Source: Elusimicrobiota bacterium (lineage in GTDB: Bacteria; Elusimicrobiota; Elusimicrobia; UBA1565; UBA9628). Taken from it: a stretch of DNA of 64,000 nt. The DNA is taken from assembly GCA_016182905.1 (NCBI GenBank), contig JACPFR010000044.1, positions 59,000 through 122,999 of the forward strand, read 5' to 3'. This document shows, piece by piece, positions 1,515 to 30,330 of the stretch (positions within the stretch are counted from its first letter, which is position 1; the number at the start of each line of letters is the position of its first letter). The notes below the pieces were generated by a model. That model saw only the letters and a program-made list of their open reading frames with translations. It was not told the DNA's origin and searched no databases. The position numbers and the translations under genes were made by a program.

Positions 1515-1518
1515 ATCC

Positions 1519-3029: not shown

Positions 3030-3063
3030 CATCCGGTCTCCCGGACTGGCCTACACGTCGATA

Positions 3064-3211: not shown

Positions 3212-3286
3212 GGCGGGGTAGCTCAGTGGTAGAGCACCGGTCTGAAAAACCGGGTGTCGACAGTTCGATCCTGTCCCCCGCCACCA
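3212..3286 (+). tRNA. tRNA-Phe: tRNA-Phe (anticodon GAA), CCA encoded
   Basis: GGCGGGG acceptor stem pairing with CCCCGCC. D-arm TAGCTCAGTGGTAGAGC. Anticodon loop CTGAAAA with GAA at positions 34-36. T-arm GTTCGATCC. 3' CCA present. Confidence 0.9.
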
Positions 3287-3290
3287 TTTT

Positions 3291-3725: not shown

Positions 3726-4639
3726 AGACGGAAGGGGATCGCCTTCGGAAGGACCTCGAACACGACGGGCGCCGTCCCGTCCGCGTCCCCGTCGATGTTG
3801 AGCGGCAGGGGCTCCTCGGAGTGTATCTCGACGCGGCGCGCGCGCCGCAGGACGACGCCGGGACGGCCGGCGTGTCCGCCCGAATACGCCCGGGGCAGCA
3901 GCGACATCAGCTCCGGACGCGTCATGTCGCCGATCGTGAGCAGGTCGAGCAGCCCGTCCTCCGCGTCCGCCTGCGGGGCGAGCCTCATGCCCCCGCCGAA
4001 GGTGCTCGTGTTGGCCGCGGCCACGAGGTGGTAGCGCGCCGCCGGCTCCGCGACGCCGTCGACCGTGAGGCGCATGCTCCGCGCCTTCGCCGTCGCCACG
4101 GACAGCACGCCCTCGACGAGATAGGTCAAGGTGCCGCCGAGGAACTTACCGCGCGCGGCCACGGACAGCGCCACGTCGCCGGGCAGCCCGAGCGCCGCGA
4201 CGTTGAGGAAGTGCCGGGAGCGCGGCGCGCCGTCCGCCGCGCGGAAGGTCGCGCGCCCCGCGTCGAGGCGCCGGCGCTTGCCCTCGGCGAAAGCCTTGGC
4301 CCATGCCTCGGGCTCTCGCGGCACGCCCATGTGATTGGCGAAGTCGCAGCCCGACCCGGCGGGGAAGGTCGCGAGGACCGTGTTGCGGCGCACATGCTCG
4401 GGCACCGCGAGGAAGCCGTCGACGACCTCGCCGAGGGTGCCGTCGCCGCCGACCGCGACGATGAGCTCCATGCCGTCCGCCGTCGCCTGCCGCGTCAGCT
4501 CCCGCCCGTGCCCCGGCTTCTCGGTGCGCGCCAGCTCCAGGTCCGGGAAAAGGTCCTTGGCGAGCGCGCGGGCCCTGTCCCAGCGCCCCCCCGCCCGCCC
4601 GTGCCCCGCCGCCGGATTGACTATGAACAGCGTTCTCAT
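3722..4639 (-). CDS. Diacylglycerol-kinase catalytic-domain family lipid kinase (YegS/BmrU-like)
   Basis: MRTLFIVNPAAGHGRA ... IVAVGGDGTLGEVVDG is the DAGK_cat signature. 305 aa. Confidence 0.8.
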   Translation of the reverse strand: MRTLFIVNPAAGHGRAGGRWDRARALAKDLFPDLELARTEKPGHGRELTRQATADGMELIVAVGGDGTLGEVVDGFLAVPEHVRRNTVLATFPAGSGCDFANHMGVPREPEAWAKAFAEGKRRRLDAGRATFRAADGAPRSRHFLNVAALGLPGDVALSVAARGKFLGGTLTYLVEGVLSVATAKARSMRLTVDGVAEPAARYHLVAAANTSTFGGGMRLAPQADAEDGLLDLLTIGDMTRPELMSLLPRAYSGGHAGRPGVVLRRARRVEIHSEEPLPLNIDGDADGTAPVVFEVLPKAIPFRL

Positions 4640-12410: not shown

Positions 12411-12546
12411 GGTGATTCTCCTTGCGTCAGGGTTCGGCTAAAGGCAGCCGCCCCTCTATTTTTTTACCACGAAGACACAAAGACGCGAAGGAAACGTCGT
12501 TCTTAGCGACTTGGCGTCTTGGTGGTTCGATTAACTGTACAAGAAA

Positions 12547-13857
12547 CTAGAGGCAGCCTCCCCGCTTGAGGATCTCGCGGGCGGAAGCGCCGTAGGGCTC
12601 GAGCGAGAAGCAGGCGTCGAGCTCCTTGGCGGACAGGCGCTTCGACACGTCGGGGTCGCCCGCCAGGTGCTCGCGCAGCGGGCGGCCGTCCTTCCAGGTC
12701 TTCATCGCGTTGCGCTGCACGAGGTCGTACGCCTCGAGGCGGCCGAGGCCGGCGTCGATGAGGCGCAGCAGGACCTTCTGCGAGAAGACGAGGCCGTTCA
12801 TCTTGTCGAGGTTGCGCTTCATGTTCTCCGGGAACACCTGCAGGCCGTCGAGCACCTGCTCGAGACGATGGAGCATGAAGTCGAGGGCGATGTGGGCGTC
12901 GGGGATGATCATGCGCTCGTTCGAGGAGTGCGAGATGTCCCGCTCGTGCCACAGCGCGCAGTTCTCCGTCACCGCCGACTCGTAGGTGCGGATCAGGCGC
13001 GCGAGGCCGCACAGGTTCTCGCACAGCACCGGGTTGCGCTTGTGGGGCATCGCGGAAGACCCCTTCTGCCCGTCGGAGAACGGCTCCTCGAGCTCGAGGA
13101 CCTCCGTCTTCTGCAGGTGCCGGATCTCGAGGGCGATGCGCTCGACGAAGCAGGCGGTCAGCACGAGCGAGTGGAAGTACTCGGCGTAGCGGTCGCGCGG
13201 CACGACCTGGGTCGAGACCGGCTCGGGGCGCAGGCCGAGCGCGTCGAGGACCTTCGCCTCGACCTCGGGCGAGAGCTGAGAGAACGCGCCGACGGCGCCG
13301 GAGACCTTCCCGTAGGCGATGAGCTCGCGCGCGGCGCGCAGCCGGCGCAGGCAGCGCAGGCCCTCGGCGTGCCAGCCGGCGACCTTGATGCCGAAGGTGA
13401 TGGGCTCGGCGTGGACGCCGTGGGTGCGGCCGACCATCCAGGTGCGCTCGTGCTTCTTGGCCAGGGCCTTCAGGCGCTTGAGTACGGCCTCGACGCCGGC
13501 GACGAGCAGGTCGGCCGAGTCGCGCAGCTGCAGCGCCATCGAGGTGTCGAGCACGTCGGAGGAGGTCATCCCGAAGTGCAGGTAGCGGTCGACCTTGGGA
13601 GCGGTCTTCTTCAGCTCGCCGGCGACGGCCGCGAGCATGCCGATGACCTCGTGGCCGGCGCTCGACTCCTTGCGGCGGGAGGCGTCGAGCAGGGACTTCT
13701 CGAGCAGCTTGCGCAAGGTCTTGAGCTCGGAGGCGGGCACGCCCTTCTCCGGGGCGATCGCCTTGAGCAGCTCCTCCTCGACGCGCAGCATCGCGCGCAG
13801 GCGGTTGTCGTCGGACCATATCTCGCCCATCGCGGGGCGGGTGTAGCGTGGGATCAT
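12547..13857 (-). CDS. purB: Adenylosuccinate lyase
   Basis: Start at MIPRYTRPAMGEIW with AGGAGG ribosome-binding site; the 772-aa ORF is an artefactual extension. Fumarate-lyase signature GSSAMPHKRNP. 436 aa. Confidence 0.9.
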   Translation of the reverse strand: MIPRYTRPAMGEIWSDDNRLRAMLRVEEELLKAIAPEKGVPASELKTLRKLLEKSLLDASRRKESSAGHEVIGMLAAVAGELKKTAPKVDRYLHFGMTSSDVLDTSMALQLRDSADLLVAGVEAVLKRLKALAKKHERTWMVGRTHGVHAEPITFGIKVAGWHAEGLRCLRRLRAARELIAYGKVSGAVGAFSQLSPEVEAKVLDALGLRPEPVSTQVVPRDRYAEYFHSLVLTACFVERIALEIRHLQKTEVLELEEPFSDGQKGSSAMPHKRNPVLCENLCGLARLIRTYESAVTENCALWHERDISHSSNERMIIPDAHIALDFMLHRLEQVLDGLQVFPENMKRNLDKMNGLVFSQKVLLRLIDAGLGRLEAYDLVQRNAMKTWKDGRPLREHLAGDPDVSKRLSAKELDACFSLEPYGASAREILKRGGCL

Positions 13858-15068
13858 GCGACCTCCTGTAGAACGAGACCTTCCTCGGCGCGGTCGAGGC
13901 TGCGTCCGAGGCGATGGAAGCCCCAGCCGGCCGCGCCCGCGAGCGCGCCCGCGGCCAGCCACGGCACGGGCGTCCAGCGTCCGCTGAAATGCTCGTAGCC
14001 GAGGCCGCCGAACAGCGGGCCGAGCGCCTGGCCGAGCGACTGCAGCAGGCCGTGAAAACCGAGATAGCGGCCCTTGAGCCCGGCCGGCGCGAGGTTGGCC
14101 GCGACCGATTCGACGCTCGGGGAGACGACGATCTCGCCGAGCGTCACGATCGCCATGCCGAGCGCGAGCGGCCACCAGCCGCGCGCGAAGCCGACCCAGG
14201 ACCAGCCGGCGAGGTAGAACAGGCAGCCCGCGGCGGCGGCCCGGGTGAGCGCGACCCGCTCGACGGCGCGCGTGGCCGCCCGCTGGAACAGGACGACGAG
14301 GGCTCCGTTGACCCCGAACAGGAAGCCGACCTCGGCCGTGGCGAGGCCCCCGTGGGCCGTCGCGTGCACCGACAGCGGCGCGACGAGCTGGGACATCGAG
14401 CAGGTCACGAGCAGGCTCAGGATCCCTAGCTCCAGGAAGCGCGGGTCGCGGGCCGCCGTCAGGCTCCCGCTCCAGGCGAAGCCCTCGCCGGAACGGGCCG
14501 CGGGCGCCGCGGGCACGAGGCCGAGGAGCAGCCCGACGCAGAGCAGGCACATCGCCGAGGTCGCCGCGAACATGAACGCGTACGAGTACCCCGCCATGAA
14601 GCCGCCGATCGCCGGGCCGACGGCCCACGCCGCGTTCTGAGCGACGCGCAGCGCGCCGTACGCGCGGGCGCGCCCTCCGGCCGGATGCTCGTGCGCGATC
14701 CACGCGCGCACCGCCGGGGAATAAAAATGACCGAGGAACGCGCCGAGGACGTGCACGGCGACGATGACGGCCACCGGCCATTCCCCGGCGACGCCCGCCG
14801 CCAGCAGCGCGGTGAACGCCGCCCGGGAGGCGACCGACAGGACCATCACGCGCTTGCAGCCCCACACGTCGGCGAGCTCCCCGCCGAGCGCCTGACCGAC
14901 CGCCGCCGCCGCGATCGCGCCGCTGACCGCGAGCCCGACGAGGCCCATCGGCATCCCCCGCTGCTCGTGGAAGTACAGGGTCAGGAACGGGAAGGACAGC
15001 GCGAAGCCCGCCACCAGGACGCCGTGGCAGAGGAGGAGGGCGTTCAGCGCGGTCTTCGGCTTGGTCAT
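13854..15068 (-). CDS. MFS transporter
   Basis: Start at MTKPKTALN. Twelve predicted transmembrane segments. 4-bp overlap with the purB start. Confidence 0.75.
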   Translation of the reverse strand: MTKPKTALNALLLCHGVLVAGFALSFPFLTLYFHEQRGMPMGLVGLAVSGAIAAAAVGQALGGELADVWGCKRVMVLSVASRAAFTALLAAGVAGEWPVAVIVAVHVLGAFLGHFYSPAVRAWIAHEHPAGGRARAYGALRVAQNAAWAVGPAIGGFMAGYSYAFMFAATSAMCLLCVGLLLGLVPAAPAARSGEGFAWSGSLTAARDPRFLELGILSLLVTCSMSQLVAPLSVHATAHGGLATAEVGFLFGVNGALVVLFQRAATRAVERVALTRAAAAGCLFYLAGWSWVGFARGWWPLALGMAIVTLGEIVVSPSVESVAANLAPAGLKGRYLGFHGLLQSLGQALGPLFGGLGYEHFSGRWTPVPWLAAGALAGAAGWGFHRLGRSLDRAEEGLVLQEVA

Positions 15069-15661
15069 TCGCCGTCGCTGCCGAGCTCGATCTCGCGCTT
15101 GGCCGTCGAGAGCGGGACGCCGGCCGCGCACTGCGGGCAGGTCTCGGGCGAGGCGGCCTCGAGCGGATAGCCGATCAGGCTGCGCACGGGCACGCCGAGG
15201 CACAGCGGCGCCTTCGAGCGGTCCACCATCGCGGCGACGCCGACGACGCGCGCGCCGTAGGCCTGGGCGAGCGCGACGACCTCGCCGTTCGAGCGGCCCG
15301 TCGTGAGGACGTCCACGACGACGAGCGCGCGCTCGCCGCGCTCCAGGCGGAAATCGCGGCGGAACGCCATCGTGCCGCCGACGCGCTCGGTGAAGATCGC
15401 GCGGCTCTTCTTGGCGCGGGCGACCTCCTGGCCGAGGACGACCGAGCTCATGCCCGTCGAGATCACGACGTCGACCGCGGCCAGGAACTTGGACGCGATC
15501 GCCTTGGCGACCTTCTGGGCGACGTGCGGATATTGGAGGACCAAAGCGGGCTGGAGGTAGACCGGGGTGTGGAGGCCCGACGCGAGCCGGAAGTGCCCGC
15601 TCGCCACCGCGCCGTGCTCCTGAAGCAGGCCCAGCACGTCCATCTTGTTCATTCGGCTCAT
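15065..15661 (-). CDS. Type I phosphoribosyltransferase, orotate phosphoribosyltransferase-like (PyrE-like)
   Basis: GHFRLASGLHTPVYLQ resembles the OPRTase loop. PRPP-binding motif ALVVVDVLTTGRS. Start chosen at MSRMNKM with GGAG ribosome-binding site. 198 aa. Confidence 0.7.
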   Translation of the reverse strand: MSRMNKMDVLGLLQEHGAVASGHFRLASGLHTPVYLQPALVLQYPHVAQKVAKAIASKFLAAVDVVISTGMSSVVLGQEVARAKKSRAIFTERVGGTMAFRRDFRLERGERALVVVDVLTTGRSNGEVVALAQAYGARVVGVAAMVDRSKAPLCLGVPVRSLIGYPLEAASPETCPQCAAGVPLSTAKREIELGSDGE

Positions 15662-15674
15662 CTCGTTCTCCTGG

Positions 15675-17909
15675 TCACAGAGTCTGCAGCTTCTCGATCG
15701 CGTCGAAGCGCTTCTTGCCCGAGGAGCGGCCTTCCTCGAGCTTCCGCTCGATTTCATCCACGGGGATTTTCTTAAAACGCGGCTCGAGCTCGGGCTTGTT
15801 GAGGTCGCCCTTCACGCGGAAGCCGATGGACGGGCGGCCGGCCTCGTCCACCCACCACTCGGGCAGGACGCCGTCGTACTTCGCCAGGCGCGTCAGGACG
15901 TTCATGTCCACCTGCTCGCGGGCGAAGTCGGCGGTACCCTCGGCGAACGCGGCGAGCTGCGGGGAGTCGACGTGGAAGTAGCGCGTCGTGGCGACGCCCT
16001 TGGTCAGGCCGTATTCGCTCTCGATCCTCTGGAAGTCGAGGGTCTTCGGGTAGGCGGTGGCCGTGCTGAAGATGGAGAACTTGTTCATCTTGTGCATGTA
16101 GATGAAAGGGAGGAAGATCACCCGCAGCAGCTTGTGGGAGTCCTGCACCGCCGGGATGTCCGCCACGCGCCCGGGGCCGAAGCGCACGCGGGCCTCGCCG
16201 CCGACCTTGTCGAGCGCGGGCGTCACGCCGCGGATCGACCAGAGCAGGTCGAGGTCCTTGCACCAGAAGTTCTCCTGCCTCACCTCGGTCACGCGCAGGT
16301 GGCCGGCGGTGTCCGGGAAGCCGCGCGGGATGACGTACTTGAAGGTGCTGACCCACGGCCGGGCCTGGCGGCGCTCCAGCTCCTGCGGCGACAGCGTGCG
16401 CGTCGAGATCGAGGCCGCGATGCCGGTCACGAGCTTCTGGGCGTCCTCCCACACGATCTTATCGAGGTTGCCGGAGATCAGGACCTCCTTCGGCGCGGAA
16501 AGGCGGTCCACGCGCCCCCTCAGGCGCAGGCGGGACTCTCCCCAGCGCAGCGCGAGGTTCTCGACGGTCAGGGTCTGCTTGGCCACCGACAGGGTGACGG
16601 CGATGTCGTCGAAGGCGTTGCCGTACGCGACGACCCGGCCCTTCGTGACCGAGGCCTTGACCGAGGCGAACTCGTCGGTGACGAACGCGTCCAGGTCGAG
16701 GATCTCGACGCGGCGGTCGCCCCAGTCCGCACCGAAGCCGCGCAGGCTGATCACGGCCTCCTTGAGCTGCAGGGCGCCGAGCTTGCCCTCGATGGTGCCG
16801 CTCAGGGCGGCCTTGCCGCGGGGATCTCGGGCGGCCCAGGACGGATGCCAGTCCTTGAGGTTCTCGAGCACCGCGTCCTTCGTCGCGATCCGGGCGCTCA
16901 GGGAGGCGGTGTCCGAGGTCAGGTCGAAGACGCCGCTCGCGTTCGCCGTGCCCGCGGGCGTCGCCACGGCGAGGCGCTCGACGTTCCAGATCGTCTGCGC
17001 GGACCAGTTCACGCGAGCGCTCACCTTCGTCGCGGGCAGGGACAGCTTGAGGTCGCGGCCGGTCCAGCGCGGCCAGCGCTCGGCCCCGAGGGCGGGCACG
17101 TCGGCCTCGATCTCGAAGACGGGGCGCTGGAAGCCGGCGACCGAGCCCGAGCCCGTGACCGTGACGCCGTCCGCCTCGGCCGTGAACCGGTGCGCGGTCG
17201 CCGTGGCGCTCGACCAGCGCAGGCCGGCGAGGTCCATGACGCCCTCGGCCGAGACGCTCGTCGTCAGCGTGCGCGTGCCGAACGTGACGGCGTTGACGAA
17301 GGACAGCTCGAGAGGGAAGGGCTGATCCTGGTCGAAGCTGTCGGCGCGCAGCGTGAGCCGCTCGAAGGAGATCTTCCGGCCCCGCTTGCGGTCGTCGAAC
17401 TTGAGGACGCCGTCGTTGACGATGGTCTCCGCCGCGGCGAGCGCCAGCGGCAGGGCGCCGCCGGGCGCGGCCTTCGTGGCCGTGAACAGGTCCGCGATGT
17501 CCCAGGTCCCGTCCGCCTCGCGCGTCAGGAAGATCTGGGGAGACTCCAGGCGCACCGCGTCGAACTCGAGGCGGCGGCGCAGCAGCGGGCGGAGCTTGAC
17601 GGTGACGAGCGCCGTGTCGCAGACGAGCTGGTCGCCCTCGGAGCCGGAGGCGCGGCGCACGCGCAGGCCCTTGATCTTCAGGCCGCGCGGGCTGAGGATC
17701 ATCTTCTCGATCGTGACCTCGCGGTGCAGCAGGGCCTGAAGCTGCGAGACGGCGATGGCGCGCGCCTCCTCCGGGCCGAACTTGTGCTGGGCGTAGATCC
17801 CGACGCCGGCGACGATCAGGACCAGGACGACGAAGGAGAGGCCGAAACCGCGGAGCACGGTCCGGAAGGCGGCGGCAAGGAGTCGAAGCGCCCCTTTAGG
17901 GCCTTCCAT
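15675..17909 (-). CDS. AsmA-family outer-membrane biogenesis protein (AsmA/TamB-like)
   Basis: N-terminal membrane anchor followed by a long beta-rich AsmA domain and AsmA_2-like C-terminus. 744 aa. Confidence 0.7.
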   Translation of the reverse strand: MEGPKGALRLLAAAFRTVLRGFGLSFVVLVLIVAGVGIYAQHKFGPEEARAIAVSQLQALLHREVTIEKMILSPRGLKIKGLRVRRASGSEGDQLVCDTALVTVKLRPLLRRRLEFDAVRLESPQIFLTREADGTWDIADLFTATKAAPGGALPLALAAAETIVNDGVLKFDDRKRGRKISFERLTLRADSFDQDQPFPLELSFVNAVTFGTRTLTTSVSAEGVMDLAGLRWSSATATAHRFTAEADGVTVTGSGSVAGFQRPVFEIEADVPALGAERWPRWTGRDLKLSLPATKVSARVNWSAQTIWNVERLAVATPAGTANASGVFDLTSDTASLSARIATKDAVLENLKDWHPSWAARDPRGKAALSGTIEGKLGALQLKEAVISLRGFGADWGDRRVEILDLDAFVTDEFASVKASVTKGRVVAYGNAFDDIAVTLSVAKQTLTVENLALRWGESRLRLRGRVDRLSAPKEVLISGNLDKIVWEDAQKLVTGIAASISTRTLSPQELERRQARPWVSTFKYVIPRGFPDTAGHLRVTEVRQENFWCKDLDLLWSIRGVTPALDKVGGEARVRFGPGRVADIPAVQDSHKLLRVIFLPFIYMHKMNKFSIFSTATAYPKTLDFQRIESEYGLTKGVATTRYFHVDSPQLAAFAEGTADFAREQVDMNVLTRLAKYDGVLPEWWVDEAGRPSIGFRVKGDLNKPELEPRFKKIPVDEIERKLEEGRSSGKKRFDAIEKLQTL

Positions 17910-17930
17910 GGAGCCTCATAAGGAATGATT

Positions 17931-19043
17931 TTACCTTATTAGGCTTTCGTACAGTTCGAGGAGGGCGGAGGCGCCGCGGTCCCAGGCGCAGGGGAGCGCG
18001 GCGGCGGGACCGGAAGCTCCGACGCGGGCGCGCTTTTCCGCGTCGGCGAAGGCGAGCATCGACGACTCGAGGGCCTCGCCGGAAGGGTCCGCGAGGACGG
18101 AGTCCCGGGCCTCCCCCTTCAGGAGCTCGGCGGCGCCGACCGAGGCGCCGGTGACCACGGGCAGGCCGCAGGCGAGGGCCTCGAGCACGCTCATGCCGAA
18201 CTCCTCCCACTTCGCGGGATGGACGTAGACGTCGAGCGCGTGGTAGAAGCGCCAGACCTCGGGGAGCGGGTCGCGGAAGACGACGCGATCCGCGACCCCA
18301 AGCTCGCGCGCGAGCGCGAGGTAAGGACCCGGGCGCGACTCCTTGCCGACGACCAAAGCGCGCGCCTCGGAGCGCCTCCGCGCGACGGCGGCGAAGGCGC
18401 GCAGGAAGGGCTTCAAGCCGCGCTTCTCGAAGTCCCCGGAGGTGACGAGGCCGTAGAGGAGCTCCCCGGGCTTCACCCCGAGCTCGGCGCGCGTCGCGGC
18501 GCCGAAGTCCGCGCGTCCTCCGGGATTGAAGCGGCACGAGTCGAACCCGGGATGGATCACCGTGATCTTCTCGGCGGGCACTCCGAAGCGGCGCGTCACG
18601 TCGTCCTTCATCAGGTTCGAGTTCGCGACGAGCGCGCGGAAGCGCCCCTGCGACAACTGGATCGAGTGCATGCGCCCCACGGCGTCGTCCTCGGGTAGAG
18701 GGCGTTTATGAAGGGATTCATGCGCGGCATGAACGCAGTTGTGCAGGCTCAGCACGTCCTGGTCGAGCAGGTCGCCGTGGCCGTGCACGAGATCGAATTT
18801 TTTCGTCATCCCCTCGGCCGCGGCCGCGAAGGCGCGCCGCTTCATCCACGAGCCCCAGGGCCAGGCCGGGACCCAGTGCGGGACCGCGCCGGCGTCGAGC
18901 AGCGCCTTCTTGTCGAGCTTCTCCGCGAAGACGTGCACCTCCCAATCCCCGCGGGAGAGGCGGCGCGCGTGCTCGACGATCATGCGCGCGGCGCCCGACA
19001 ATCCCTCGACCCGCCGTGCCGCCACGGCCAACCTCCTCTTCAC
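17931..19043 (-). CDS. Glycosyltransferase family 4 (WaaG/RfaG-like)
   Basis: N-terminal GLSGAARMIVEHARRLSRGDWEVHVF aligns with the WaaG GGxxRD region. C-terminal EX7E region EEFGMSVLEALACGLPVV. GTG start overlaps the upstream stop (GTGA). Confidence 0.8.
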   Translation of the reverse strand: MKRRLAVAARRVEGLSGAARMIVEHARRLSRGDWEVHVFAEKLDKKALLDAGAVPHWVPAWPWGSWMKRRAFAAAAEGMTKKFDLVHGHGDLLDQDVLSLHNCVHAAHESLHKRPLPEDDAVGRMHSIQLSQGRFRALVANSNLMKDDVTRRFGVPAEKITVIHPGFDSCRFNPGGRADFGAATRAELGVKPGELLYGLVTSGDFEKRGLKPFLRAFAAVARRRSEARALVVGKESRPGPYLALARELGVADRVVFRDPLPEVWRFYHALDVYVHPAKWEEFGMSVLEALACGLPVVTGASVGAAELLKGEARDSVLADPSGEALESSMLAFADAEKRARVGASGPAAALPCAWDRGASALLELYESLIR

Positions 19044-19633
19044 CGGACCCCCACGATGCGCAGGATCGTCGCGGAGGCGACCGGGATCCAGAGGTTGTCG
19101 TTGGACCAGGGAGTCGTCGGCAGGAGCTCGGCCAGCGCGCCCGCGAGGGCGGCCGCGAACGCGGCGCCCGGCCGGAGGCCGCAGGCGAGCGCCGCGGCGA
19201 AGCCGACCGCGAGGCCGGCGAGGCTCCCCTCGAGCGACTTCGCGCCGCCGAACAGCTTCGTGCGGCCGTACGCCTTGCCGACCAAAGCGCTCGCCGCGTC
19301 GCCGAGCGCCAGCTGCAGGATCGCCGCGCCGACGATCATCGGCTCGCCGCGCGCGATGAGCATGGCCGCCAGGCTCCCGGCCGTGGTGTGGAAGATGCCG
19401 CTGAAGTGCTTCCGCTCGGTCTCGCGGATCATGCCGTCGAAGAAGCCGACGAGCGCGCGCTCGATCGCGGGGACCTTCAGGCGCAGGGTCTCGATGAGGA
19501 GCACGACGGGCAGCCAGACGGCCATCATCCAGCCGACGCGGGGCCAGCCGACGAGATGGAACGCGCCGAGGTAGGCCAAGGACAGCATGTGGAAGGTCTT
19601 GCGGCCGAACTCCCGGCGGAGGTCGCTCGTCAT
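19040..19633 (-). CDS. CTP-dependent polyprenol/diacylglycerol kinase-like membrane protein (CTP_transf_1 / DUF92 / dolichol-kinase family)
   Basis: Start at MTSDLRREFGRK, with ATGA overlap onto the upstream stop. C-terminal GDAASALVGKAYGRTKLFGGAKSLEGSLAG matches the dolichol/phytol kinase signature. Confidence 0.6.
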   Translation of the reverse strand: MTSDLRREFGRKTFHMLSLAYLGAFHLVGWPRVGWMMAVWLPVVLLIETLRLKVPAIERALVGFFDGMIRETERKHFSGIFHTTAGSLAAMLIARGEPMIVGAAILQLALGDAASALVGKAYGRTKLFGGAKSLEGSLAGLAVGFAAALACGLRPGAAFAAALAGALAELLPTTPWSNDNLWIPVASATILRIVGVR

Positions 19634-20367
19634 GAGAACGCCGCCTTGCGCGCCGACTCGAACGCGGGCCGGCTCCACAGCCACGCCAGGCTCCAGAAGC
19701 GCTTCGTCAGGCCGCCCGCCTCGCGCAGGTTCGCCAGCAGGGTCACCGCGTCCGGGAAAAGCCCCTTGAGCAGGGCCATCAGCATGAGGGCGTTGGCGAT
19801 CGCGATCAAGGCGACGGAGAACAGCACGCCTCCGGCCGCGTCGAGGTCCGGCTGGCGAGTCTGGGTCAGGGAATCCCAGGTGAACAGGAGATGGGCGGCC
19901 AGCGCGCCGCCGAGGAGGAACAGGAACAAGGCCTCGCCTCCCGCGTCGGGCCGCAGCCAGAGGAGCATGCGGTAGGCCATGGCGACGGTCAGCGCATAAA
20001 ACGGCACGCAGTAGGGAGCGAGTGCTACGAACGCGCTCGAGTGCGACAGGTCGACGTGGCCTTCCTTCTCGCCGACGGAGATCGCGTACACGCTGCCGCC
20101 CGTGGCCCAGGCCGCCATCGCGTGGGTGAGCTCGTGGCCCAGGACGTAGCTCCAGCGCGCGCCGCGCGCGGCCCAGGCCGCGGGCCCGACCGGATCGACG
20201 AGCAGCCAGCGGCGGATCGCCCACAGCGCGAAGGCGAGGCCGAGGCCCGCCCCGAAGGGCGCGGCCGACGTGGAATGGACCGCGACGCCGGCGAGCGTCT
20301 TGGCCGACACCCAGAGCAGCGAGCCGGACAGCGGGAGGAGGAGGACGCCGATCAGCAGGCGCAGCAC
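19630..20367 (-). CDS. Polytopic membrane protein with intramembrane HExxH motif (putative M50/DUF3267-like zinc metallopeptidase)
   Basis: YVLGHELTHAMAAW is embedded between hydrophobic helices. 245 aa. Confidence 0.5.
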   Translation of the reverse strand: MLRLLIGVLLLPLSGSLLWVSAKTLAGVAVHSTSAAPFGAGLGLAFALWAIRRWLLVDPVGPAAWAARGARWSYVLGHELTHAMAAWATGGSVYAISVGEKEGHVDLSHSSAFVALAPYCVPFYALTVAMAYRMLLWLRPDAGGEALFLFLLGGALAAHLLFTWDSLTQTRQPDLDAAGGVLFSVALIAIANALMLMALLKGLFPDAVTLLANLREAGGLTKRFWSLAWLWSRPAFESARKAAFS

Positions 20368-20370
20368 CCT

Positions 20371-20835
20371 CTACTCCAGCATGTAGTCTTGGTAGGGGAT
20401 CTTGCGGGCGTCGAGCTCCTTCTTCCAGAGCTCGCGCGTCTCCGTCATCTTTCCCCGCGCGAGGACGCTCCAGCGGTTCTCGGGCGGGCTGAACAGCTCG
20501 GCGGCGGTCTGATACCAGACGTAGGCGTACTTGAGCGAGCTCTCGGCCACGGCCTGGTCCCGCTCGAAGCGCGCCAGCCCCGCCTTGCGCTCGTACGCCG
20601 CGCGGTCGAGCATGCCCTTGGCCAGCTCCCGCGACAGCTCGCCTTCGCGCGCCGCGAGCTCGGCGTCGAAGTGAGCCTTCTTGAGCTCGGGTCTGCGGCT
20701 CCACTCCATCCATTTCTCGCCCTCGAGATAGGCGGAGCGCGAGCGCAGGACCAGGTCGACGCGGGCCATGCCGTAGACGGCCGCGACGAGCGCCGCCGCG
20801 ATCAGGGCCGACCGGACCCAGGCCCGGCCGTTCAT
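20371..20835 (-). CDS. Hypothetical membrane-anchored protein
   Basis: One N-terminal transmembrane helix, then a charged helical region. 4-bp overlap with the upstream receiver-domain gene. Confidence 0.45.
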   Translation of the reverse strand: MNGRAWVRSALIAAALVAAVYGMARVDLVLRSRSAYLEGEKWMEWSRRPELKKAHFDAELAAREGELSRELAKGMLDRAAYERKAGLARFERDQAVAESSLKYAYVWYQTAAELFSPPENRWSVLARGKMTETRELWKKELDARKIPYQDYMLE

Positions 20836-21248
20836 GCCGCGTCGCCGGGCGGCGCGGTGCCCAGCAGGTTGTGCAGCGCCACGGTGAGCATCGCCGGGCG
20901 CACGGGCTTCTGAAGGAAGTCCTTCACGTTCGGCTCCTGGCGCACCATCTCGATGCTCTTGGCGTCCATCGCGCGGCCGGTGACGACGATGATCGGGATG
21001 TGGCCGAAGCCGCGGGACTGGAGCTCGCGCAGGGCCTCGTAGCCGCCCATGCTGGGCAGCATGAAGTCGAGCACGATCGCGTCGGGCTCGAGCGCGGCGA
21101 CCTTGGCCAGGGCCTCGATGCCGTCCTCCGCGCGCTCGGTGCGGAAGCCGGCCTTCTTGACGACGTGGTCCATCAGGTCGAGCAGGGACTCGTCGTCGTC
21201 GACGAGCAGGACGAGCTTGCTGGACGGCGCTCCGGCGGTATCGCTCAT
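20832..21248 (-). CDS. Single-domain response regulator (CheY-like receiver)
   Basis: LVLLVDDDESLLDL ... AIVLDFMLPSMGG ... IIVVTGRA. Receiver domain with phospho-acceptor Asp. 138 aa. Confidence 0.85.
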   Translation of the reverse strand: MSDTAGAPSSKLVLLVDDDESLLDLMDHVVKKAGFRTERAEDGIEALAKVAALEPDAIVLDFMLPSMGGYEALRELQSRGFGHIPIIVVTGRAMDAKSIEMVRQEPNVKDFLQKPVRPAMLTVALHNLLGTAPPGDAA

Positions 21249-21652
21249 GCGGCCTCCGGGGCTCGCGGCCTGAGGAGGCGCTCGAGCGTCGCGACGAGCA
21301 CGCTGGGCTTGAGCGGCTTCTCGAGGAAGTCCACGACGTTGGATTCCTGGCGGATCATCTCGGCGGTCGAGCGGTCGGTGTAGCGGCCGGTGATGATCAC
21401 GATCGGGATGAGGGAGAGGTCGCTTCCCTGCAGCTGGCGCAGGACCTCGAACCCGCCGTAGCGGGGCATCATCAGGTCGAGGAGGATCAGGTCGGGCTTG
21501 AGGCGCTCCGCCTTCTGCACGCCGTCCTCGCCGTCCACGGCGACCTCCGCGCGGAAGCCCTCCTTCTTGATCATGAAGGTCAGGAGGTCGCGCACGCCGT
21601 CGTCGTCGTCGATGATCAGGACGAGCTTCGCCTTTTCTTCGGGTTCGGCCAT
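21245..21652 (-). CDS. Single-domain response regulator (CheY-like receiver), paralog
   Basis: LVLIIDDDDGVRDL ... LILLDLMMPRYGG ... IVIITGRY. ATGA overlap with the downstream receiver-domain gene. 135 aa. Confidence 0.85.
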   Translation of the reverse strand: MAEPEEKAKLVLIIDDDDGVRDLLTFMIKKEGFRAEVAVDGEDGVQKAERLKPDLILLDLMMPRYGGFEVLRQLQGSDLSLIPIVIITGRYTDRSTAEMIRQESNVVDFLEKPLKPSVLVATLERLLRPRAPEAA

Positions 21653-21733
21653 GGCCTCATTTTACCGTATTTTTGCCGTCAGGATATGGCGCCGGAGGAG
21701 CGCCGGGGCTATACTCCCGCCGAGAGGTACCCC

Positions 21734-22720
21734 ATGCGCCGATCCCGCTCCTTCCTCGCCGCCGGCCTGTGCGTCTCCTTCCTCGTCCAGTCGACCGGCG
21801 CCGCCGACCTCGCGCCGGTCTTCGCGCGCGGGATGATGCTGCCTCCGCCCGGACGCATGGCCCCTCCGCCGAGGACCGCCCAGCCCGCGAAGCGCGCCGT
21901 GAAGCCCGCGCGGGAGCCCTGGCTCGTCTCCGCCGCCGTCGTGGCGCGCTGGGTCGAGGAGCGGCTGACCGCGGCCCTCGCCGCGCCCGCCGCCGTCGAG
22001 GAGACGGTCGCCCCCGAGGCGCTCGCGTCCTTCTCCGCCGCCGCGTCCGCCGAGCTCGTCTCCGTCGCGTCGCTCCCGAACCCCGAGCCTCCGGCCGACC
22101 GCATGCTCATCGCGATGGAGGGCCGCCGCGTCCTCGCCTCCGGGCTCGCGGCGCAGCTGGCCTCGATCCGCGAGTTCCGCGCCGACCTCAAGCCCCTGCG
22201 CCCGCGCTTCACCGGCGAGTGGGTGGGCCGCGGCGACGTCCGCGCGCGCGTCGACTACATGAACCCCTTCGGCGTCACGCAGGGCGAGGCCAAGGGCTTC
22301 CGCGTGAAGCTCTCCGACGGCTACGAGCGCCTGCTCCCGAGCCGCAGGCCCATCCCGGAGTCGCTGATGCGGGAGCTGCCGCTGTATTTCGCCGGGGACG
22401 CCGTGGACGTCGAGGTCCGCGTCCGCAACGACGGCGCGGCCGCCCTGACGGACCTGACGGTCGCCTCCGTGCAGGAGGCGCACACCGCCGACGGGGCGCC
22501 GGGCGCCCCGGTGGCGAAGCCCGTGACCAAGAGCGTCGCGACTTTGGCGCCCGGCGAGACCGCGATCCTGCGCTGGCGCATCAAGCTGTCCCCCGCCGGC
22601 CTCGACGCCGTGAACTTCGAGCAGACCCACCTGAAGGTGCTGGGCAAGGACCCCGCCGGCGGGGAGAAGGTCCTGCTCGACGAGACGCAGGCCGGGATCG
22701 TCGATCCGCCGGGCGAGTGA
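21734..22720 (+). CDS. Hypothetical secreted protein
   Basis: Start at MRRSRSFLAAGLCVSFLVQSTGAADL (signal peptide) with GAGAGG ribosome-binding site. Ala/Pro-rich N-terminal half and a beta-rich C-terminal half. Confidence 0.5.
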   Translation: MRRSRSFLAAGLCVSFLVQSTGAADLAPVFARGMMLPPPGRMAPPPRTAQPAKRAVKPAREPWLVSAAVVARWVEERLTAALAAPAAVEETVAPEALASFSAAASAELVSVASLPNPEPPADRMLIAMEGRRVLASGLAAQLASIREFRADLKPLRPRFTGEWVGRGDVRARVDYMNPFGVTQGEAKGFRVKLSDGYERLLPSRRPIPESLMRELPLYFAGDAVDVEVRVRNDGAAALTDLTVASVQEAHTADGAPGAPVAKPVTKSVATLAPGETAILRWRIKLSPAGLDAVNFEQTHLKVLGKDPAGGEKVLLDETQAGIVDPPGE

Positions 22721-22753: not shown

Positions 22754-23146
22754 ATGGATCTCGATGAATTCCGCGGCCGCGTCGAGCGCATCGACAAGCT
22801 CGCCGCCTCCGGCGACGACCGCGCGCTGCTGTCCGAGCTGAACGGCCTCGCGGACTCCGACCTTCCCGACCTGGACCGCGCGCGCCTCCTTTGCCAGGCC
22901 GCGCAGGCCCACGAGCGCCTCGGCGAGGCGGACCGGGCGCTGGCCGCGTACGACCGCGCCGCGGCCCTCGAGACGCCGCACCGCCGCTTCCAGGCCGCCT
23001 TCCGCAAGTCCGACTACCTGATGCGCCTCGGCCGCAAGGACGAGTGCCGGGACATCCTGAAGTCCCTCCTGGAGCGCCCCGAGGCGACGCTCTCCGAGCG
23101 CCACTCCTTCGAAGCCCGGATCAAGCTCCTGCGCCGCGTCGCCTGA
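22754..23146 (+). CDS. Small TPR-like helical protein
   Basis: 130 aa. Helical repeats (RARLLCQAAQAHERLGEADRALAAYDRAAAL). Confidence 0.4.
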   Translation: MDLDEFRGRVERIDKLAASGDDRALLSELNGLADSDLPDLDRARLLCQAAQAHERLGEADRALAAYDRAAALETPHRRFQAAFRKSDYLMRLGRKDECRDILKSLLERPEATLSERHSFEARIKLLRRVA

Positions 23147-23149: not shown

Positions 23150-23848
23150 TCAGCGCGGGGCGGTCTTCAGCGTCTTGTGCAGGGCCGAGACGAACTTGGC
23201 CATCTTGACCGGCTTGGCGACGAACTCGACGACGTTCGCCTCCGCGCGGATCATCTTGATCGTCGAGTCGTCGAGCGCGCTGCCGGTGACGATGAAGACC
23301 GGGATGCGCCCGGTCGCCCCGCCCTGGAGCGAGCGCAGGAACTCGTAGCCGCCCTGACCCGGCATCATGAGGTCGGTGATGATGAGGTCCGGCGTCTGGG
23401 ACTCGAGCTTCGCGCCGGCGTCGAGCCCATCGACCGCCGTGAGCACGCGGAAGCCCTGGAGGCTCGCGCTCATCTCGAGGAAGCTGCGCACGGTCTCGTC
23501 GTCGTCGACGACCAGGATCAGCTTGTCGCCCGGGGCCGCGAGAGCGGGCGCGGGATCGGCCACGGTCGTCTCCGCCGGCGCCGCCGGCAGCGGCGCGGCG
23601 GCCGGCGGAGCAACGGGCTTCTCCGCGCGCGGCGGGGCGGCGGTCAGGAAGATGCCGCTCGAGTCCGGGTCCAGCGCCTTCGCCAGGTCGGGGAAGCTCG
23701 CCGCCGCCTTCCACGCGTCCTGCGTGGTCGCGCCGGCCGGAAAGACCAAGGTCTCCCTCTTGAATCCCGGGCGCAGGGCCAGCTGCGCGGCCTCGAACGG
23801 ACCGACCGGCTTTCCCTCTTCATAGAGGTAGTACGGCATGGAGGTCAC
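23150..23848 (-). CDS. Response regulator with N-terminal GYF-like/DUF4339-like domain, Pro/Ala linker and C-terminal receiver domain
   Basis: N-terminus MPYYLYEEGKPVGPFEAAQL. Receiver domain LILVVDDDETVRSF ... LIITDLMMPGQGG ... VFIVTGSA. Third receiver paralog in 3 kb. Confidence 0.75.
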   Translation of the reverse strand: MTSMPYYLYEEGKPVGPFEAAQLALRPGFKRETLVFPAGATTQDAWKAAASFPDLAKALDPDSSGIFLTAAPPRAEKPVAPPAAAPLPAAPAETTVADPAPALAAPGDKLILVVDDDETVRSFLEMSASLQGFRVLTAVDGLDAGAKLESQTPDLIITDLMMPGQGGYEFLRSLQGGATGRIPVFIVTGSALDDSTIKMIRAEANVVEFVAKPVKMAKFVSALHKTLKTAPR

Positions 23849-24155: not shown

Positions 24156-24208
24156 TTCGTTATCTCCATGGGTGCGGCGCTTTCGACTTGCTAGCATACC
24201 CCCTCAAA

Positions 24209-25099
24209 ATGAATCCCGCCAGTCCCCCCCGCCTCGTCCGCCTGCTGCTCGCCGGACTCGCCGCCGCCTCGACGTGCGCGTTCCTGGCCGCCCTCTGGGT
24301 GGTATGGCTGCCGGACGTCTCGCCGCTCAAGAAGAGCCCGCCCGCGACCACGGCCTACATCGAGCTGCGCAAGAAGCAGGCGAAGGCCAAGGGCCGCAAG
24401 CTCGACCTGCGCTGGACCTGGGTCCCTTCCGGGGCGATATCGGAGGACCTCAAAAGGGCCGTCGTGACCGCCGAGGACGACGAGTTCTGGCGCCACGACG
24501 GCGTCGACTGGGACGCGATCCGCGCCGCCTACGAGCGCAACCGCAAGGCGGGGCGTTTCGCCGCCGGCGGCAGCACGATCACGATGCAGCTCGCTCGCAA
24601 CCTCTATCTGTCGCCGAGCAAGAACCCCCTGCGCAAGGCCAAGGAGATCCTCATCGCGCGGCGCCTCGAGCGCGAGCTCGGCAAGCGGCGCGTCCTGGAG
24701 CTCTATCTCAACGTCGTCGAGTGGGGCAAGGGCGTGTTCGGCTGCGAGGCCGCGGCGCGCGTCTACTTCCAGAAATCCTGCGCCGACCTGTCGTACGAGG
24801 AAGCCGTCGCGATGGCCGTCGTCCTCCCCAATCCCCGCCGCTGGAGCCCCGCCAAGCGCGGCCCCTACGTGGAGCGCAACTCCGCGCGGATCATGGGCCG
24901 CATCGCCGCGGCGGACCGGGCGCGGGCCGCGGCGGCGGGAGAACCCCCGGCCGAGACCCCGGCCGGGGACGCGGCCGACGCCGCGGGACCGGACGCGACC
25001 GAGGATCCCGGCGAGGACGACGACGCGATCGTCGAGCCCGAGGTCTACAGCGGCTCGACGACGGTGAACTCCTCGACCGGCTCGGCGCTCGGCGAGTAG
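24209..25099 (+). CDS. mtgA: Monofunctional biosynthetic peptidoglycan transglycosylase (GT51)
   Basis: N-terminal transmembrane helix. GT51 motifs EDDEFWRHDGVDW, GGSTITMQLARN, RKAKEILIARRLE. Start could be TTG 24188 instead of ATG 24209. Confidence 0.85.
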   Translation: MNPASPPRLVRLLLAGLAAASTCAFLAALWVVWLPDVSPLKKSPPATTAYIELRKKQAKAKGRKLDLRWTWVPSGAISEDLKRAVVTAEDDEFWRHDGVDWDAIRAAYERNRKAGRFAAGGSTITMQLARNLYLSPSKNPLRKAKEILIARRLERELGKRRVLELYLNVVEWGKGVFGCEAAARVYFQKSCADLSYEEAVAMAVVLPNPRRWSPAKRGPYVERNSARIMGRIAAADRARAAAAGEPPAETPAGDAADAAGPDATEDPGEDDDAIVEPEVYSGSTTVNSSTGSALGE

Positions 25100-26640
25100 G
25101 GCAGGAAGCCGAAGCCGTTGGAGTAGAAGCCGGCCTCCCCGGTCCAGCCGCTGATGAGGCGCAGCGGGATCGGGCTGCCGACGCGGACCTCGCGCACGAC
25201 GGCCTTGAGGCTCCCCGCCGGCCTCAGGATGTTGGAGTTGACGCGGGGCACGATGACGGCGTCGCCGGGCCGGACCCCGGACCAGCCGCCCGCGGAGGCG
25301 TCGAGCACGGCTCCGCCGGCCTCCTCGACGTAGTGCTGCAGGCCCCAATGGCCGGCGCACCAGAGGCGCCCGCCCTTCGCCGCGCGCTCCGCGGCGGCCT
25401 CGCGGGCCATCGTCCGCTGAGCCCCGGCGTACTGAAAGTCGACGATGGACAGCAGCACGCTCAGGGCCGCGACCCCGGCGAGGCTGACCGCCTGCGCGAG
25501 GCGCAGACGCTTTTCGGGCCAGCGCGCCTCGAGCGCCTCCGCCAGCGAGAAGACCAGCGGCGGGATCAGGAACAGGACGAGCCGGGCGAGGATCGCCCAA
25601 TAAGCGAACAGCAGGAGGGCCGACACCGAGGCGGTCCACGCGGCCCACAGCCTCGCGCCGCGGCCCTCGGCGCGGAAGAGGGCCGACAGGGCGAGCAGGG
25701 CTCCGAAGGAGAACAGGACGCCGGCCGCGCGGTCGACGGGACGCACGAGCGGGGCGAGGTCGAACGCGGGCAGGAACAAGACGATCGCCGCGGCGGCGCA
25801 GGCGGCGACCAGGGCTTTCGACGGCCTCGCCAGCAGGGGCCAGAACGCGACGACGACGCCGCAGCCCCCGGTGAAGGACAGGAACGAGCGCAGCTTGTGG
25901 GACCAGGCGGACCAGTACATCCGCGACGCGTCCGCCGTCACGCCCGCCGCCGAATCCCACGCCCCGCTGCGGAGAAGGGCTCCCCCCAACAGCCAGCACG
26001 CCAGCGGCGCGGCCGCCAAGGCGAAGTATCCCGCCAGACGCCGAGGAGGAACGCGTCCCCACAGAAGGCACAACGCCGGCAGGGCGAGGAAGATCGCGTT
26101 GTATTTCGCCAGCAGCGCGGCGGCGAACAGCGCGGCCGAGGCCCACAGCCAGGCCGGCCGGTCCTCCTCCGCGCCGCGCGCGAGCGCGTAGAGGCTCGGG
26201 AAGGCGAAGCCCGCCATGACCTTCTCCGCCATCAGGTGGTTCATGTCGATCATGTAGGCGGGCGAGGCGACGACGATGAGCGCGGGCAGCAGCGGACGCT
26301 TCAGATAGCGCGCCGCCAGGAGGTAGAGCGCCAGGCTCGACGCCAGGTCGAAAGGCAGGAAGGCCAGGCGCATCGCCGTCTCGCCGCCCCCGGTGAGGCG
26401 CAGAGCCGCCGCCAGGAGGTAGGCCAGCAGCGGCGGCGTGTTGTTGATGCTCGACATCGGCACGGCGTCGCCGTACCAGTTGAACCGGAAGGCGAACGGG
26501 TGCAGGGGGTCGCGCAGTATCCGGCGCGCGATGGCGAGGAAGAAAGGCTCGTCGACGTGGAACGCCTTCCCCAGGAACGGGAAAAGCGCGAGCCCGGTGA
26601 AGGCGGCGACGATCAGGAGGTCCCGGCCGCGCCGCGTCAC
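25045..26640 (-). CDS. Membrane glycosyltransferase of the PMT/ArnT family (GT39/GT83-like)
   Basis: Polytopic membrane protein. Conserved N-terminal DEPFF-like loop (FHVDEPFFLAIARR). 531 aa. Convergent 55-nt overlap with the mtgA 3' end. Confidence 0.7.
   Translation of the reverse strand: MTRRGRDLLIVAAFTGLALFPFLGKAFHVDEPFFLAIARRILRDPLHPFAFRFNWYGDAVPMSSINNTPPLLAYLLAAALRLTGGGETAMRLAFLPFDLASSLALYLLAARYLKRPLLPALIVVASPAYMIDMNHLMAEKVMAGFAFPSLYALARGAEEDRPAWLWASAALFAAALLAKYNAIFLALPALCLLWGRVPPRRLAGYFALAAAPLACWLLGGALLRSGAWDSAAGVTADASRMYWSAWSHKLRSFLSFTGGCGVVVAFWPLLARPSKALVAACAAAAIVLFLPAFDLAPLVRPVDRAAGVLFSFGALLALSALFRAEGRGARLWAAWTASVSALLLFAYWAILARLVLFLIPPLVFSLAEALEARWPEKRLRLAQAVSLAGVAALSVLLSIVDFQYAGAQRTMAREAAAERAAKGGRLWCAGHWGLQHYVEEAGGAVLDASAGGWSGVRPGDAVIVPRVNSNILRPAGSLKAVVREVRVGSPIPLRLISGWTGEAGFYSNGFGFLPYSPSAEPVEEFTVVEPL

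Positions 26641-27512: not shown

Positions 27513-30330
<2,818 letters not shown>

Follow-up and report, generated by a model that had tools for sequence, protein, structure and literature searches.

A conserved pairing of an M50B-like membrane protein with a putative CTP-dependent lipid kinase in Elusimicrobiota

The DNA analyzed here, referred to as the window, is a stretch of 64,000 nucleotides (nt) from an Elusimicrobiota bacterium (GenBank assembly GCA_016182905.1, contig JACPFR010000044.1, positions 59,000 to 122,999) with a G+C content of ~70%. HYV14_13790 and HYV14_13795 are public locus tags of window proteins, found as exact matches in a groundwater Elusimicrobia metagenome-assembled genome (MAG). 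Ten co-directional genes occupy window positions 12503-21652 on the minus strand in the order RR1-RR2-P154-HExxH-KIN-GT4-AsmA-pyrE-MFS-purB, and this order is kept in many Elusimicrobia MAGs. The central subject of this study is a pair of adjacent genes within this string. One encodes a membrane protein with an HExxH motif, called HExxH below, and the other encodes KIN, a membrane protein related to enzymes that use cytidine triphosphate (CTP). The two are considered together with the genes that flank them (Table 1).

Table 1. Genes at the head and in the middle of the ten-gene string, with positions in the window (aa, amino acids).
Gene	Product	Positions	Strand	Basis
RR1	Stand-alone response-regulator receiver domain, 135 aa	21245..21652	-	PF00072 7.1e-24
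RR2	Second stand-alone receiver domain, 138 aa	20832..21248	-	PF00072 2.5e-22
P154	Protein of 154 aa, a single hydrophobic helix at the N-terminus (~residues 5-30) plus a charged soluble portion	20371..20835	-	Hydropathy
HExxH	Membrane protein, 245 aa, divergent M50B-like putative intramembrane metallo-hydrolase	19630..20367	-	Alignment, PF13398 via homologs
KIN	197-aa polytopic membrane protein of the CTP-dependent CdsA/CarS/dolichol-kinase superfamily, probably kinase-type	19040..19633	-	Profile, motif, fold
GT4	Glycosyltransferase, WaaG-like, 370 aa	17931..19043	-	PF13439, PF00534, PF13692
AsmA	AsmA/DUF748-family protein, 744 aa, one N-terminal membrane anchor	15675..17909	-	PF05359, PF05170

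A preliminary description of the locus, made from its sequence, had pointed to three genes coupled by overlapping start and stop codons and followed at a short distance by a fourth. This arrangement is present. The TGA stop of the HExxH gene shares bases with the ATG start of KIN (ATGA, 19633-19630), the TGA stop of KIN shares bases with a GTG start of GT4 (GTGA, 19043-19040), and AsmA begins 21 nt beyond the GT4 stop, with GAGG located 5 nt ahead of its ATG. The GTGA overlap corresponds to one of two plausible GT4 starts. One public gene call uses GTG 19025, which lies 15 nt past the KIN stop, yields a protein of 364 aa and is preceded by AGGAGG at a distance of 6 nt. Either way, KIN and GT4 are separated by no more than 15 nt.

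Such packing is typical of the whole string, where successive genes overlap by 4 nt or are separated by gaps of at most 21 nt, the housekeeping genes pyrE and purB included. Tight coupling is therefore not distinctive of the genes that had been flagged, which are simply the middle of the ten-gene string, because several other junctions are equally tight. RR1, which heads the string, overlaps RR2 by 4 nt, as does RR2 with P154, and P154 is separated from the HExxH gene by 3 nt. The pyrE/MFS and MFS/purB overlaps are also 4 nt each, as seen in the near-identical contig L044 (numbers of this form designate loci and contigs compared in this study). Scans for consensus promoters and terminators gave counts at shuffle expectation and do not define a transcription unit, and the genes of the string are presumed to be co-transcribed.

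The arrangement of these genes was compared by mapping the window proteins onto the KIN loci of one genome per species. The resulting 41 loci are all from Elusimicrobia. HExxH is located directly upstream of KIN in every one of the 40 loci that retain upstream sequence. RR1, RR2 and P154 precede the pair in most of them. In most Elusimicrobia loci the gene that adjoins HExxH on its upstream side is P154, which is absent from three (L011, L015 and L021). The region downstream of KIN, which is informative in 36 of these genome loci, is more variable. GT4 adjoins KIN in 25 of them. Four others carry a gene of the asparagine-synthase family between KIN and GT4. This inserted glutamine-dependent gene of ~640 aa, found in L035, L036, L038 and L041, places ~1.9 kb between the two, and members of its family often occur in polysaccharide and O-antigen clusters. 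A GT9 heptosyltransferase-like gene stands in place of GT4 in three loci (L015:8567-9568, L018:8597-9595 and L025:3624-4586), a non-orthologous replacement by another family of the type that acts on the lipopolysaccharide (LPS) core. In three more, KIN is followed directly by AsmA with no GT4 between them. In the remaining locus (L033, 8502-9922), KIN and AsmA are 1.4 kb apart, and the gap, which lacks a convincing open reading frame on the plus strand, may hold a minus-strand or degraded gene. GT4 and AsmA are both missing from one further contig, of metagenomic origin (L002). Almost everywhere, AsmA is followed by pyrE and purB.

A second scan, of a metagenome collection, was seeded with more distant KIN relatives, and a hidden Markov model (HMM) of the HExxH family was applied to the 80 loci recovered, 64 of which are informative. 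In 29 of the 64, HExxH is the gene just ahead of KIN, reads in the same direction and is separated from it by 3-81 nt. The G+C content of these loci ranges from 0.31 to 0.72, and all 29 belong to one of the two major KIN clades in a neighbor-joining tree. Exact look-ups of named members of this clade gave Elusimicrobiota, Endomicrobiales, Endomicrobiaceae, Endomicrobiia and Candidatus Endomicrobium trichonymphae. This last organism, an endosymbiont of termite protists, keeps the HExxH-KIN pair in its reduced genome. Neither GT4 nor AsmA is found beside KIN in the Endomicrobia-type loci whose neighbors were scanned. The genes that follow KIN in low-GC loci encode polysaccharide deacetylases, ABC-transporter components, an ArnT-like PMT_2 glycosyltransferase, TPR proteins or housekeeping functions, and AsmA directly follows KIN in the more distant high-GC loci L045 and L051. 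Many Endomicrobia-type loci contain HExxH and KIN with no detectable P154, and one low-GC locus (L074) has P154 beside KIN and no HExxH.

These comparisons establish an order of conservation. The HExxH-KIN pair is phylum-wide, the RR-RR-P154 arrangement is found in most lineages, and AsmA-pyrE-purB is found in high-GC lineages, with a variable slot for a glycan enzyme between KIN and AsmA. The expectation that HExxH, KIN, GT4 and AsmA would co-occur as a unit across genomes is not borne out by this pattern. Because pyrE and purB follow wherever AsmA follows KIN, synteny downstream of KIN is largely a lineage-wide gene order and not the signature of a pathway. The comparative pattern instead supports a functional link of KIN with its M50B-like partner.

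KIN itself gives no match in Pfam, even at E<=10, or in NCBIfam or PDB sequences, and for this reason its family was tested indirectly. The Pfam family PF01148 (CTP_transf_1), which holds CdsA, dolichol kinase, phytol kinase and Dgk1, is not matched by the window protein even at E<=10. A profile built from 20 KIN homologs and searched against 1.84 billion cluster representatives recovered 4926 relatives. Sixteen of the 82 relatives sampled match PF01148, the best at 5e-06. The profile of this 82-sequence family matches Thermotoga CdsA (TmCdsA) at E=0.013, and hhalign pairs it with E. coli CdsA at a probability of 91% (E=8.9e-07) over CdsA residues 143-209 only, which is the shared CTP-motif region. 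The predicted structure of KIN also resembles solved structures of CdsA and CarS, as expected for the superfamily fold. Membership of KIN in the CTP-dependent CdsA/CarS/dolichol-kinase superfamily of intramembrane enzymes is thus well supported. A profile search of a word-indexed database with a diverse KIN alignment found hardly anything beyond Elusimicrobia and no further distant relatives that carry names. The preliminary description had called KIN a DUF92/dolichol-kinase homolog. Motif, profile and fold uphold the second half of this label, and the first half is discarded since the DUF92/TMEM19 model (PF01940) matches neither the window protein nor any of the 82 relatives.

Three groups of conserved residues can be recognized in KIN: E8-x2-R11-K12-x2-H15 near the N-terminus, D112-x2-S-x3-G119-x3-G123-x7-AKSLEG136 in the middle and E169...D179-N180-x2-I-P184 near the C-terminus. 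The second resembles the CTP-binding motif of dolichol kinase, DxxAxxxGxxxGx8KKTxEG (PMC13586052). KIN residues 112-136, DAASALVGKAYGRTKLFGGAKSLEG, are laid out as D112-AA-S-ALV-G119-KAY-G123-RTKLFGG-AKSLEG136 and keep the Asp, both Gly, the Lys, the Glu and the final Gly of this motif. They deviate from it in having a spacer of 7 rather than 8 residues and a Ser for the motif Ala, a position occupied by Ala in at least 90% of KIN relatives. A relaxed regular expression of the dolichol-kinase motif matches 60 of the 82 relatives. R11 and D112, separated by 101 residues, are invariant across all 82. In yeast Dgk1, the residues R76 and D177 are essential, since the enzyme loses its CTP-dependent diacylglycerol kinase activity when they are mutated (PMC3486869, PMC2459266), and these are also 101 residues apart. 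The equivalence of the two pairs is drawn from spacing and motif rather than from an alignment with Dgk1. KIN thus does not lack the conserved catalytic residues whose absence would have counted against the preliminary description: the CTP motif is present, and the invariant Arg and Asp probably correspond to the essential residues of Dgk1.

Several further features bear on the type of reaction that KIN might catalyze. The N-terminal E..RK..H and C-terminal E...DN..IP motifs are conserved family-wide, and we take both to be typical of the kinase branch. CdsA has a recognizable C-terminal pattern in PROSITE, ...K-D-x-G-x2-[LIF]-P-G-H-G-G-x-x-D-R-x-D, and the HGGxxDR signature within it is absent from the 197-aa KIN. 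Homologs of KIN are labeled dolichol kinase, phytol kinase or members of the diacylglycerol/polyprenol kinase family by the JGI and NCBI pipelines, and KO-based annotation of these homologs gives dolichol or phytol kinase. A homolog from Endomicrobium is named phosphatidate cytidylyltransferase in UniRef. The kinase type is preferred over the CdsA type because of the CTP motif, the spacing of R11 and D112, the missing HGGxxDR signature and the names given by the pipelines. No CdsA gene and no KIN paralog were found in the window, the span to which this search was confined.

The partner of KIN was described from the start as an HExxH membrane protein, and it contains a single such motif, HELTH at residues 78-82, within a predicted helix that spans residues 62-88. 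This motif is invariant in an alignment of 21 homologs, as are H104, D106, D174 and G179-G180. The window protein reaches only E=0.2 and 11.8 bits against PF13398 (Peptidase_M50B-like), whose cut-off is 26, and NCBIfam and PDB sequences contain nothing significant for it. Nineteen of the 21 homologs match the same family at E<=0.1, the best at 7.1e-07. A zinc motif accompanied by a distal acidic residue in a membrane segment is also what is expected of M50B-like proteins. An AlphaFold2 (AF2) model of the protein (pLDDT 88.6) has no specific counterpart among solved structures, a comparison with the folds of solved site-2 proteases was negative, and hhalign aligned the protein to E. coli RseP in the HExxH motif only. 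The most fitting description of HExxH is a putative intramembrane metallo-hydrolase of divergent, M50B-like type. Homologs in many Endomicrobia-type low-GC loci (for example, L054, L061, L068, L069 and L102) match HMM positions 70-230 only, and they appear to be without the two N-terminal helices of the window protein.

The assignments of the two downstream genes as a WaaG-like glycosyltransferase and an AsmA-family protein were sound. GT4 matches PF13439 (2.9e-17), PF00534 (4.7e-23) and PF13692. Its best solved relatives among PDB sequences are WaaG of Pseudomonas aeruginosa (3.4e-18) and of E. coli (3.2e-13), and the similarity lies mainly in the C-terminal domain (residues 148-343). PimB' is also among its PDB matches. 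The protein has no transmembrane segment by hydropathy and scores far below every NCBIfam equivalog cut-off, including a sub-threshold match to GlcNAc-phosphatidylglycerol synthase. Judged by these similarities, GT4 is a bona fide GT4-family glycosyltransferase whose closest characterized relative is WaaG. AsmA scores above the cut-offs of PF05359 (62.3 bits, cut-off 50) and PF05170 (35.9 bits, cut-off 29.8) and has a weak match to the YhdP C-terminal region. Its single hydrophobic segment covers residues 12-45. AsmA-like proteins, which include AsmA, YhdP, TamB and YdbH, are proposed transporters of phospholipids between membranes.

The best reading of these data is that HExxH and KIN form the conserved functional unit in the string, usually with P154 and two response regulators ahead of them, and that the genes are not a dedicated module for glycolipid export. 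In this interpretation, to which we assign a probability of about 0.45, KIN is a CTP-dependent membrane lipid-alcohol kinase that works with HExxH, and the LPS-core-type GT4 and AsmA are neighbors with roles in envelope biogenesis. KIN would phosphorylate a polyprenol, such as undecaprenol, or diacylglycerol at the expense of CTP, and would thereby regenerate polyprenyl phosphate or phosphatidate for envelope assembly. HExxH would be an M50B-type intramembrane zinc hydrolase that acts with or on KIN. It might free the lipid alcohol, or it might process P154 or KIN. GT4 would serve as a glycosyltransferase of the LPS-core type and AsmA as an envelope-spanning protein for lipid transport. Both may have entered or stayed at the locus in one Elusimicrobia lineage, and neither would be an obligatory step after KIN. 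The kinase chemistry, the substrate and the physical or functional coupling of HExxH with KIN are all deduced from these comparisons.

The genes found near KIN and the domains fused to it offer some clues to a lipid substrate. Polysaccharide deacetylase genes (PF01522) occur one to three genes downstream of KIN in the low- or mid-GC loci L052, L055, L060, L061, L069 and L102, of which L052, L060 and L061 belong to Endomicrobia, judging by named relatives of KIN. Genes of the PMT_2 family are located one or two genes downstream of KIN in the distant loci L069 and L102, the latter of which has two copies of the deacetylase followed by PMT_2. In the window, a GT-C glycosyltransferase of the ArnT/PMT_2 type is encoded at 25045-26640 on the minus strand, 5.4 kb upstream, in conserved synteny. 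Deacetylase and PMT_2 neighbors are reminiscent of ArnD/ArnT-type modules for the modification of lipid A with amino sugars, and the Arn, Lgm and Flm systems of lipid A modification use polyprenyl-phosphate sugars. Polyprenol is somewhat favored as the KIN substrate by these neighbors in Endomicrobia and by the PMT_2 gene 5.4 kb upstream. The Dgk1 parallel and the fusions to phospholipid enzymes described below make diacylglycerol a plausible substrate as well.

A number of observations weigh against the interpretation of KIN as a kinase that works with HExxH. The family assignments of both window proteins are transitive, with no direct match in Pfam or NCBIfam. We know of no solved kinase of the KIN family that could be used for comparison, and evidence from the fold cannot separate a kinase from a cytidylyltransferase. 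Among ten multi-domain relatives of KIN, the KIN domain lies C-terminal to a CDP-alcohol phosphatidyltransferase domain (CDP, cytidine diphosphate) in seven, six of them recognized by Pfam and one from a truncated N-terminus, and is joined to a PLD domain in one more. Such fusions suggest that the wider family has a role in the metabolism of phospholipid head groups, and a CDP-lipid synthase would be compatible with them as well. A search for proteins that fuse HExxH with KIN, as Rosetta-stone evidence, found none, and adjacency of the two genes within one phylum could reflect inherited gene order. Finally, the genes identified between KIN and AsmA (GT4, GT9, or an AsnB-like gene with GT4) are all related to glycans. 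Repeated insertion of such genes at exactly this site may mean that KIN is coupled more closely to GT4 and AsmA than the kinase-HExxH interpretation allows. The multi-domain relatives include P0256, P0261, P0275, P0279, P0288, P0353, P0249 and P0255, and some of the fusions to CDP-alcohol phosphatidyltransferases add an HD_4 domain.

The glycan-related genes between KIN and AsmA also speak for a dedicated pathway, in which KIN phosphorylates polyprenol or diacylglycerol, GT4 glycosylates the product or a lipid derived from it and AsmA carries the result to the outer membrane. The genes are tightly packed in the window, KIN, GT4 and AsmA are adjacent in 25 of the 36 informative loci of the close clade, and AsmA remains directly behind KIN in the two distant high-GC loci. 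Some GT4 enzymes do glycosylate lipids, as the matches to PimB' and, below threshold, to GlcNAc-phosphatidylglycerol synthase recall. We nevertheless judge this explanation unlikely. GT4 is missing or replaced in seven of the 36 loci and displaced in four, KIN stands without GT4 or AsmA beside it in the Endomicrobia-type loci scanned, and pyrE and purB are equally conserved in the string. WaaG, the best relative of GT4, and the GT9 enzymes that substitute for GT4 have lipid A-core as their acceptor, not a phosphorylated polyprenol or diacylglycerol, and a hand-off of substrate from KIN to GT4 is not implied by these enzyme types. The invariably linked HExxH protein is also left unexplained. 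The module for glycolipid synthesis and export put forward in the preliminary description is partly supported and not refuted, because only glycan-related genes occupy the slot between KIN and AsmA. Its theme of an envelope glycolipid keeps some support, and its fixed four-gene pathway gives way to a variable slot within a lineage-wide gene order. HExxH, the constant partner of KIN, has no role in that model, and neither do P154 and the response regulators.

The fusions to CDP-alcohol phosphatidyltransferase and PLD domains are what would be expected if KIN instead supplied a CDP-activated lipid. KIN would then be a small cytidylyltransferase resembling CdsA or CarS, as the UniRef name of the Endomicrobium homolog has it, and the HExxH-KIN pair would be a divergent counterpart of the cdsA-rseP neighborhood, which is widespread in clusters for envelope biogenesis. 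In the E. coli K-12 annotation, the M50 protease gene rseP comes directly after cdsA, and bamA-skp-lpxD come next. This proposal seems improbable to us, as KIN has no HGGxxDR signature, its match to E. coli CdsA is limited to the shared CTP motif, its family-wide N- and C-terminal motifs are presumably of the kinase branch, and KO-based annotation names dolichol or phytol kinase. HExxH, moreover, resembles RseP only in the HExxH motif, and the gene order is reversed.

Two other explanations give more weight to the genes upstream. The string is headed by two canonical receiver domains (the translation of RR1 shows the acidic pocket, the phospho-acceptor Asp, the Thr and the Lys), single-pass P154 is encoded 3 nt upstream of HExxH, and the RR-RR-P154-HExxH order is kept in most loci. 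Given the M50B-like character of HExxH, these genes might form a signaling module in which the protease cleaves P154 under the two response regulators, and KIN, GT4 and AsmA would merely lie downstream or be targets of its regulation. The adjacency of HExxH and KIN is, however, better conserved than that of P154 and HExxH, since P154 is absent from three genome loci and undetected in many Endomicrobia-type loci, and L074 combines P154 and KIN without HExxH. P154 has no match in Pfam, NCBIfam or PDB sequences and no similarity to sigma or anti-sigma factors was found for it, nor was a histidine kinase seen among the annotated neighbors of the cluster. A signaling module is accordingly very unlikely in our view. 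It is also conceivable, if rather doubtful, that HExxH-KIN together with P154 and the two orphan response regulators is an unrecognized Elusimicrobiota-wide membrane machine in which a hydrolase and a kinase act on the same lipid. The hydrolase might, for example, free a lipid-carrier alcohol that KIN re-phosphorylates, or both proteins might take part in making a phospholipid specific to the phylum.

The surroundings of the string are a mosaic of mostly housekeeping functions, with genes for glycine cleavage, lipoate ligase, PMT_2, a monofunctional transglycosylase, pyrE, purB, an RNA methyltransferase and a PD-(D/E)XK nuclease. Synteny is conserved for several genes upstream of the cluster. 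Beside RR1 are two divergent genes, one at 21686-22720 (plus strand, 344 aa) with no Pfam match and one at 22754-23146 (plus strand, 130 aa) that encodes a TPR-like protein. They are followed by a gene for a third response regulator at 23150-23848 (minus strand, 232 aa), which has an N-terminal GYF_2 domain and a C-terminal receiver domain. The monofunctional peptidoglycan transglycosylase is encoded at 24188-25099 (plus strand), ~4.5 kb upstream of the cluster, also in conserved synteny. The G+C content falls to only 0.59-0.64 at window positions 1-4000 and 28001-30000, compared with ~0.70 in the rest of the window.

Each of the four genes from HExxH to AsmA belongs to a known superfamily, two of them as divergent members, and the neighborhood is a housekeeping mosaic. 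What is new is the phylum-wide pairing of HExxH with KIN and the recognition of a very large uncharacterized bacterial branch of the dolichol-kinase-like family. To our knowledge, characterized CTP-dependent polyprenol or diacylglycerol kinases are essentially eukaryotic or cyanobacterial. If the kinase assignment is right, KIN is a bacterial CTP-dependent polyprenol or diacylglycerol kinase from a branch with 4926 uncharacterized representatives. The strict pairing with an M50B-like protein provides a testable lead for two families at once and should be of use to specialists in bacterial lipid carriers. Were the two proteins to form a single machine, a bacterial dolichol-kinase-like protein from outside the cyanobacteria would have a function assigned for the first time, and an M50B protein would have a role that is non-proteolytic or tied to lipids. 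The locus also counsels caution: packing and local synteny cannot be read as a pathway in this lineage, because pyrE and purB share both.

Comparison with known systems helps to define what is shared and what is distinctive. GT4 is similar in length to WaaG (RfaG), the LPS core alpha-1,3-glucosyltransferase (370 versus 370-374 aa), and has the same two-domain Pfam architecture. Its slot is filled in three related genomes by a GT9 heptosyltransferase-like protein from another LPS-core family, and it differs from WaaG in being encoded outside any waa-type cluster. AsmA shares with AsmA-like proteins the N-terminal anchor and the AsmA and DUF748 matches over cut-off. It is shorter than YhdP or TamB, and it differs in that its conserved neighbors are pyrE and purB as much as KIN.

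HExxH can be compared with the M50B and site-2 proteases SpoIVFB and RseP (PF13398). Like these proteins, it has its HExxH motif in a membrane-associated helix followed by a beta-hairpin, and it shares a conserved distal Asp in a Pro-Asp-Leu-Asp...Gly-Gly segment. It differs in having neither PDZ nor CBS domains and in falling below the PF13398 threshold. At the level of gene clusters, the closest analogy is the E. coli uppS-cdsA-rseP-bamA-skp-lpxD-fabZ-lpxA-lpxB cluster, where an enzyme of the PF01148 superfamily is likewise encoded beside an M50-type HExxH protein and ahead of genes for the outer membrane and LPS. The order of the pair is reversed relative to the window, neither protein is orthologous and the similarity is at the level of motifs, so that the resemblance is an analogy and not membership.

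KIN shares its CTP-motif region with CdsA (PDB 4Q2E) and is close in size to CarS (PDB 5GUF). It lacks the C-terminal signature of CdsA, and the alignment covers only ~60 residues. The CTP-dependent lipid-alcohol kinases Sec59/DOLK, VTE5 and Dgk1, from the kinase branch of PF01148 (COG0170), are likewise polytopic and carry the CTP motif DxxAxxxGxxxG...K[ST]xEG. KIN has an invariant Arg-Lys pair and an Asp at the spacing of Dgk1 R76 and D177, and it is about the size of the catalytic domain alone. Its N- and C-terminal motifs are of what we take to be the kinase-branch type, unlike those of CdsA and CarS. Unlike the kinases, KIN is without a direct Pfam match, its spacer is one residue shorter and a Ser replaces the motif Ala. 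Its host phylum is bacterial and non-photosynthetic, and we know of no dolichol pathway there. Unlike any characterized lipid-alcohol kinase, KIN is always paired with the gene for an M50B-like protein.

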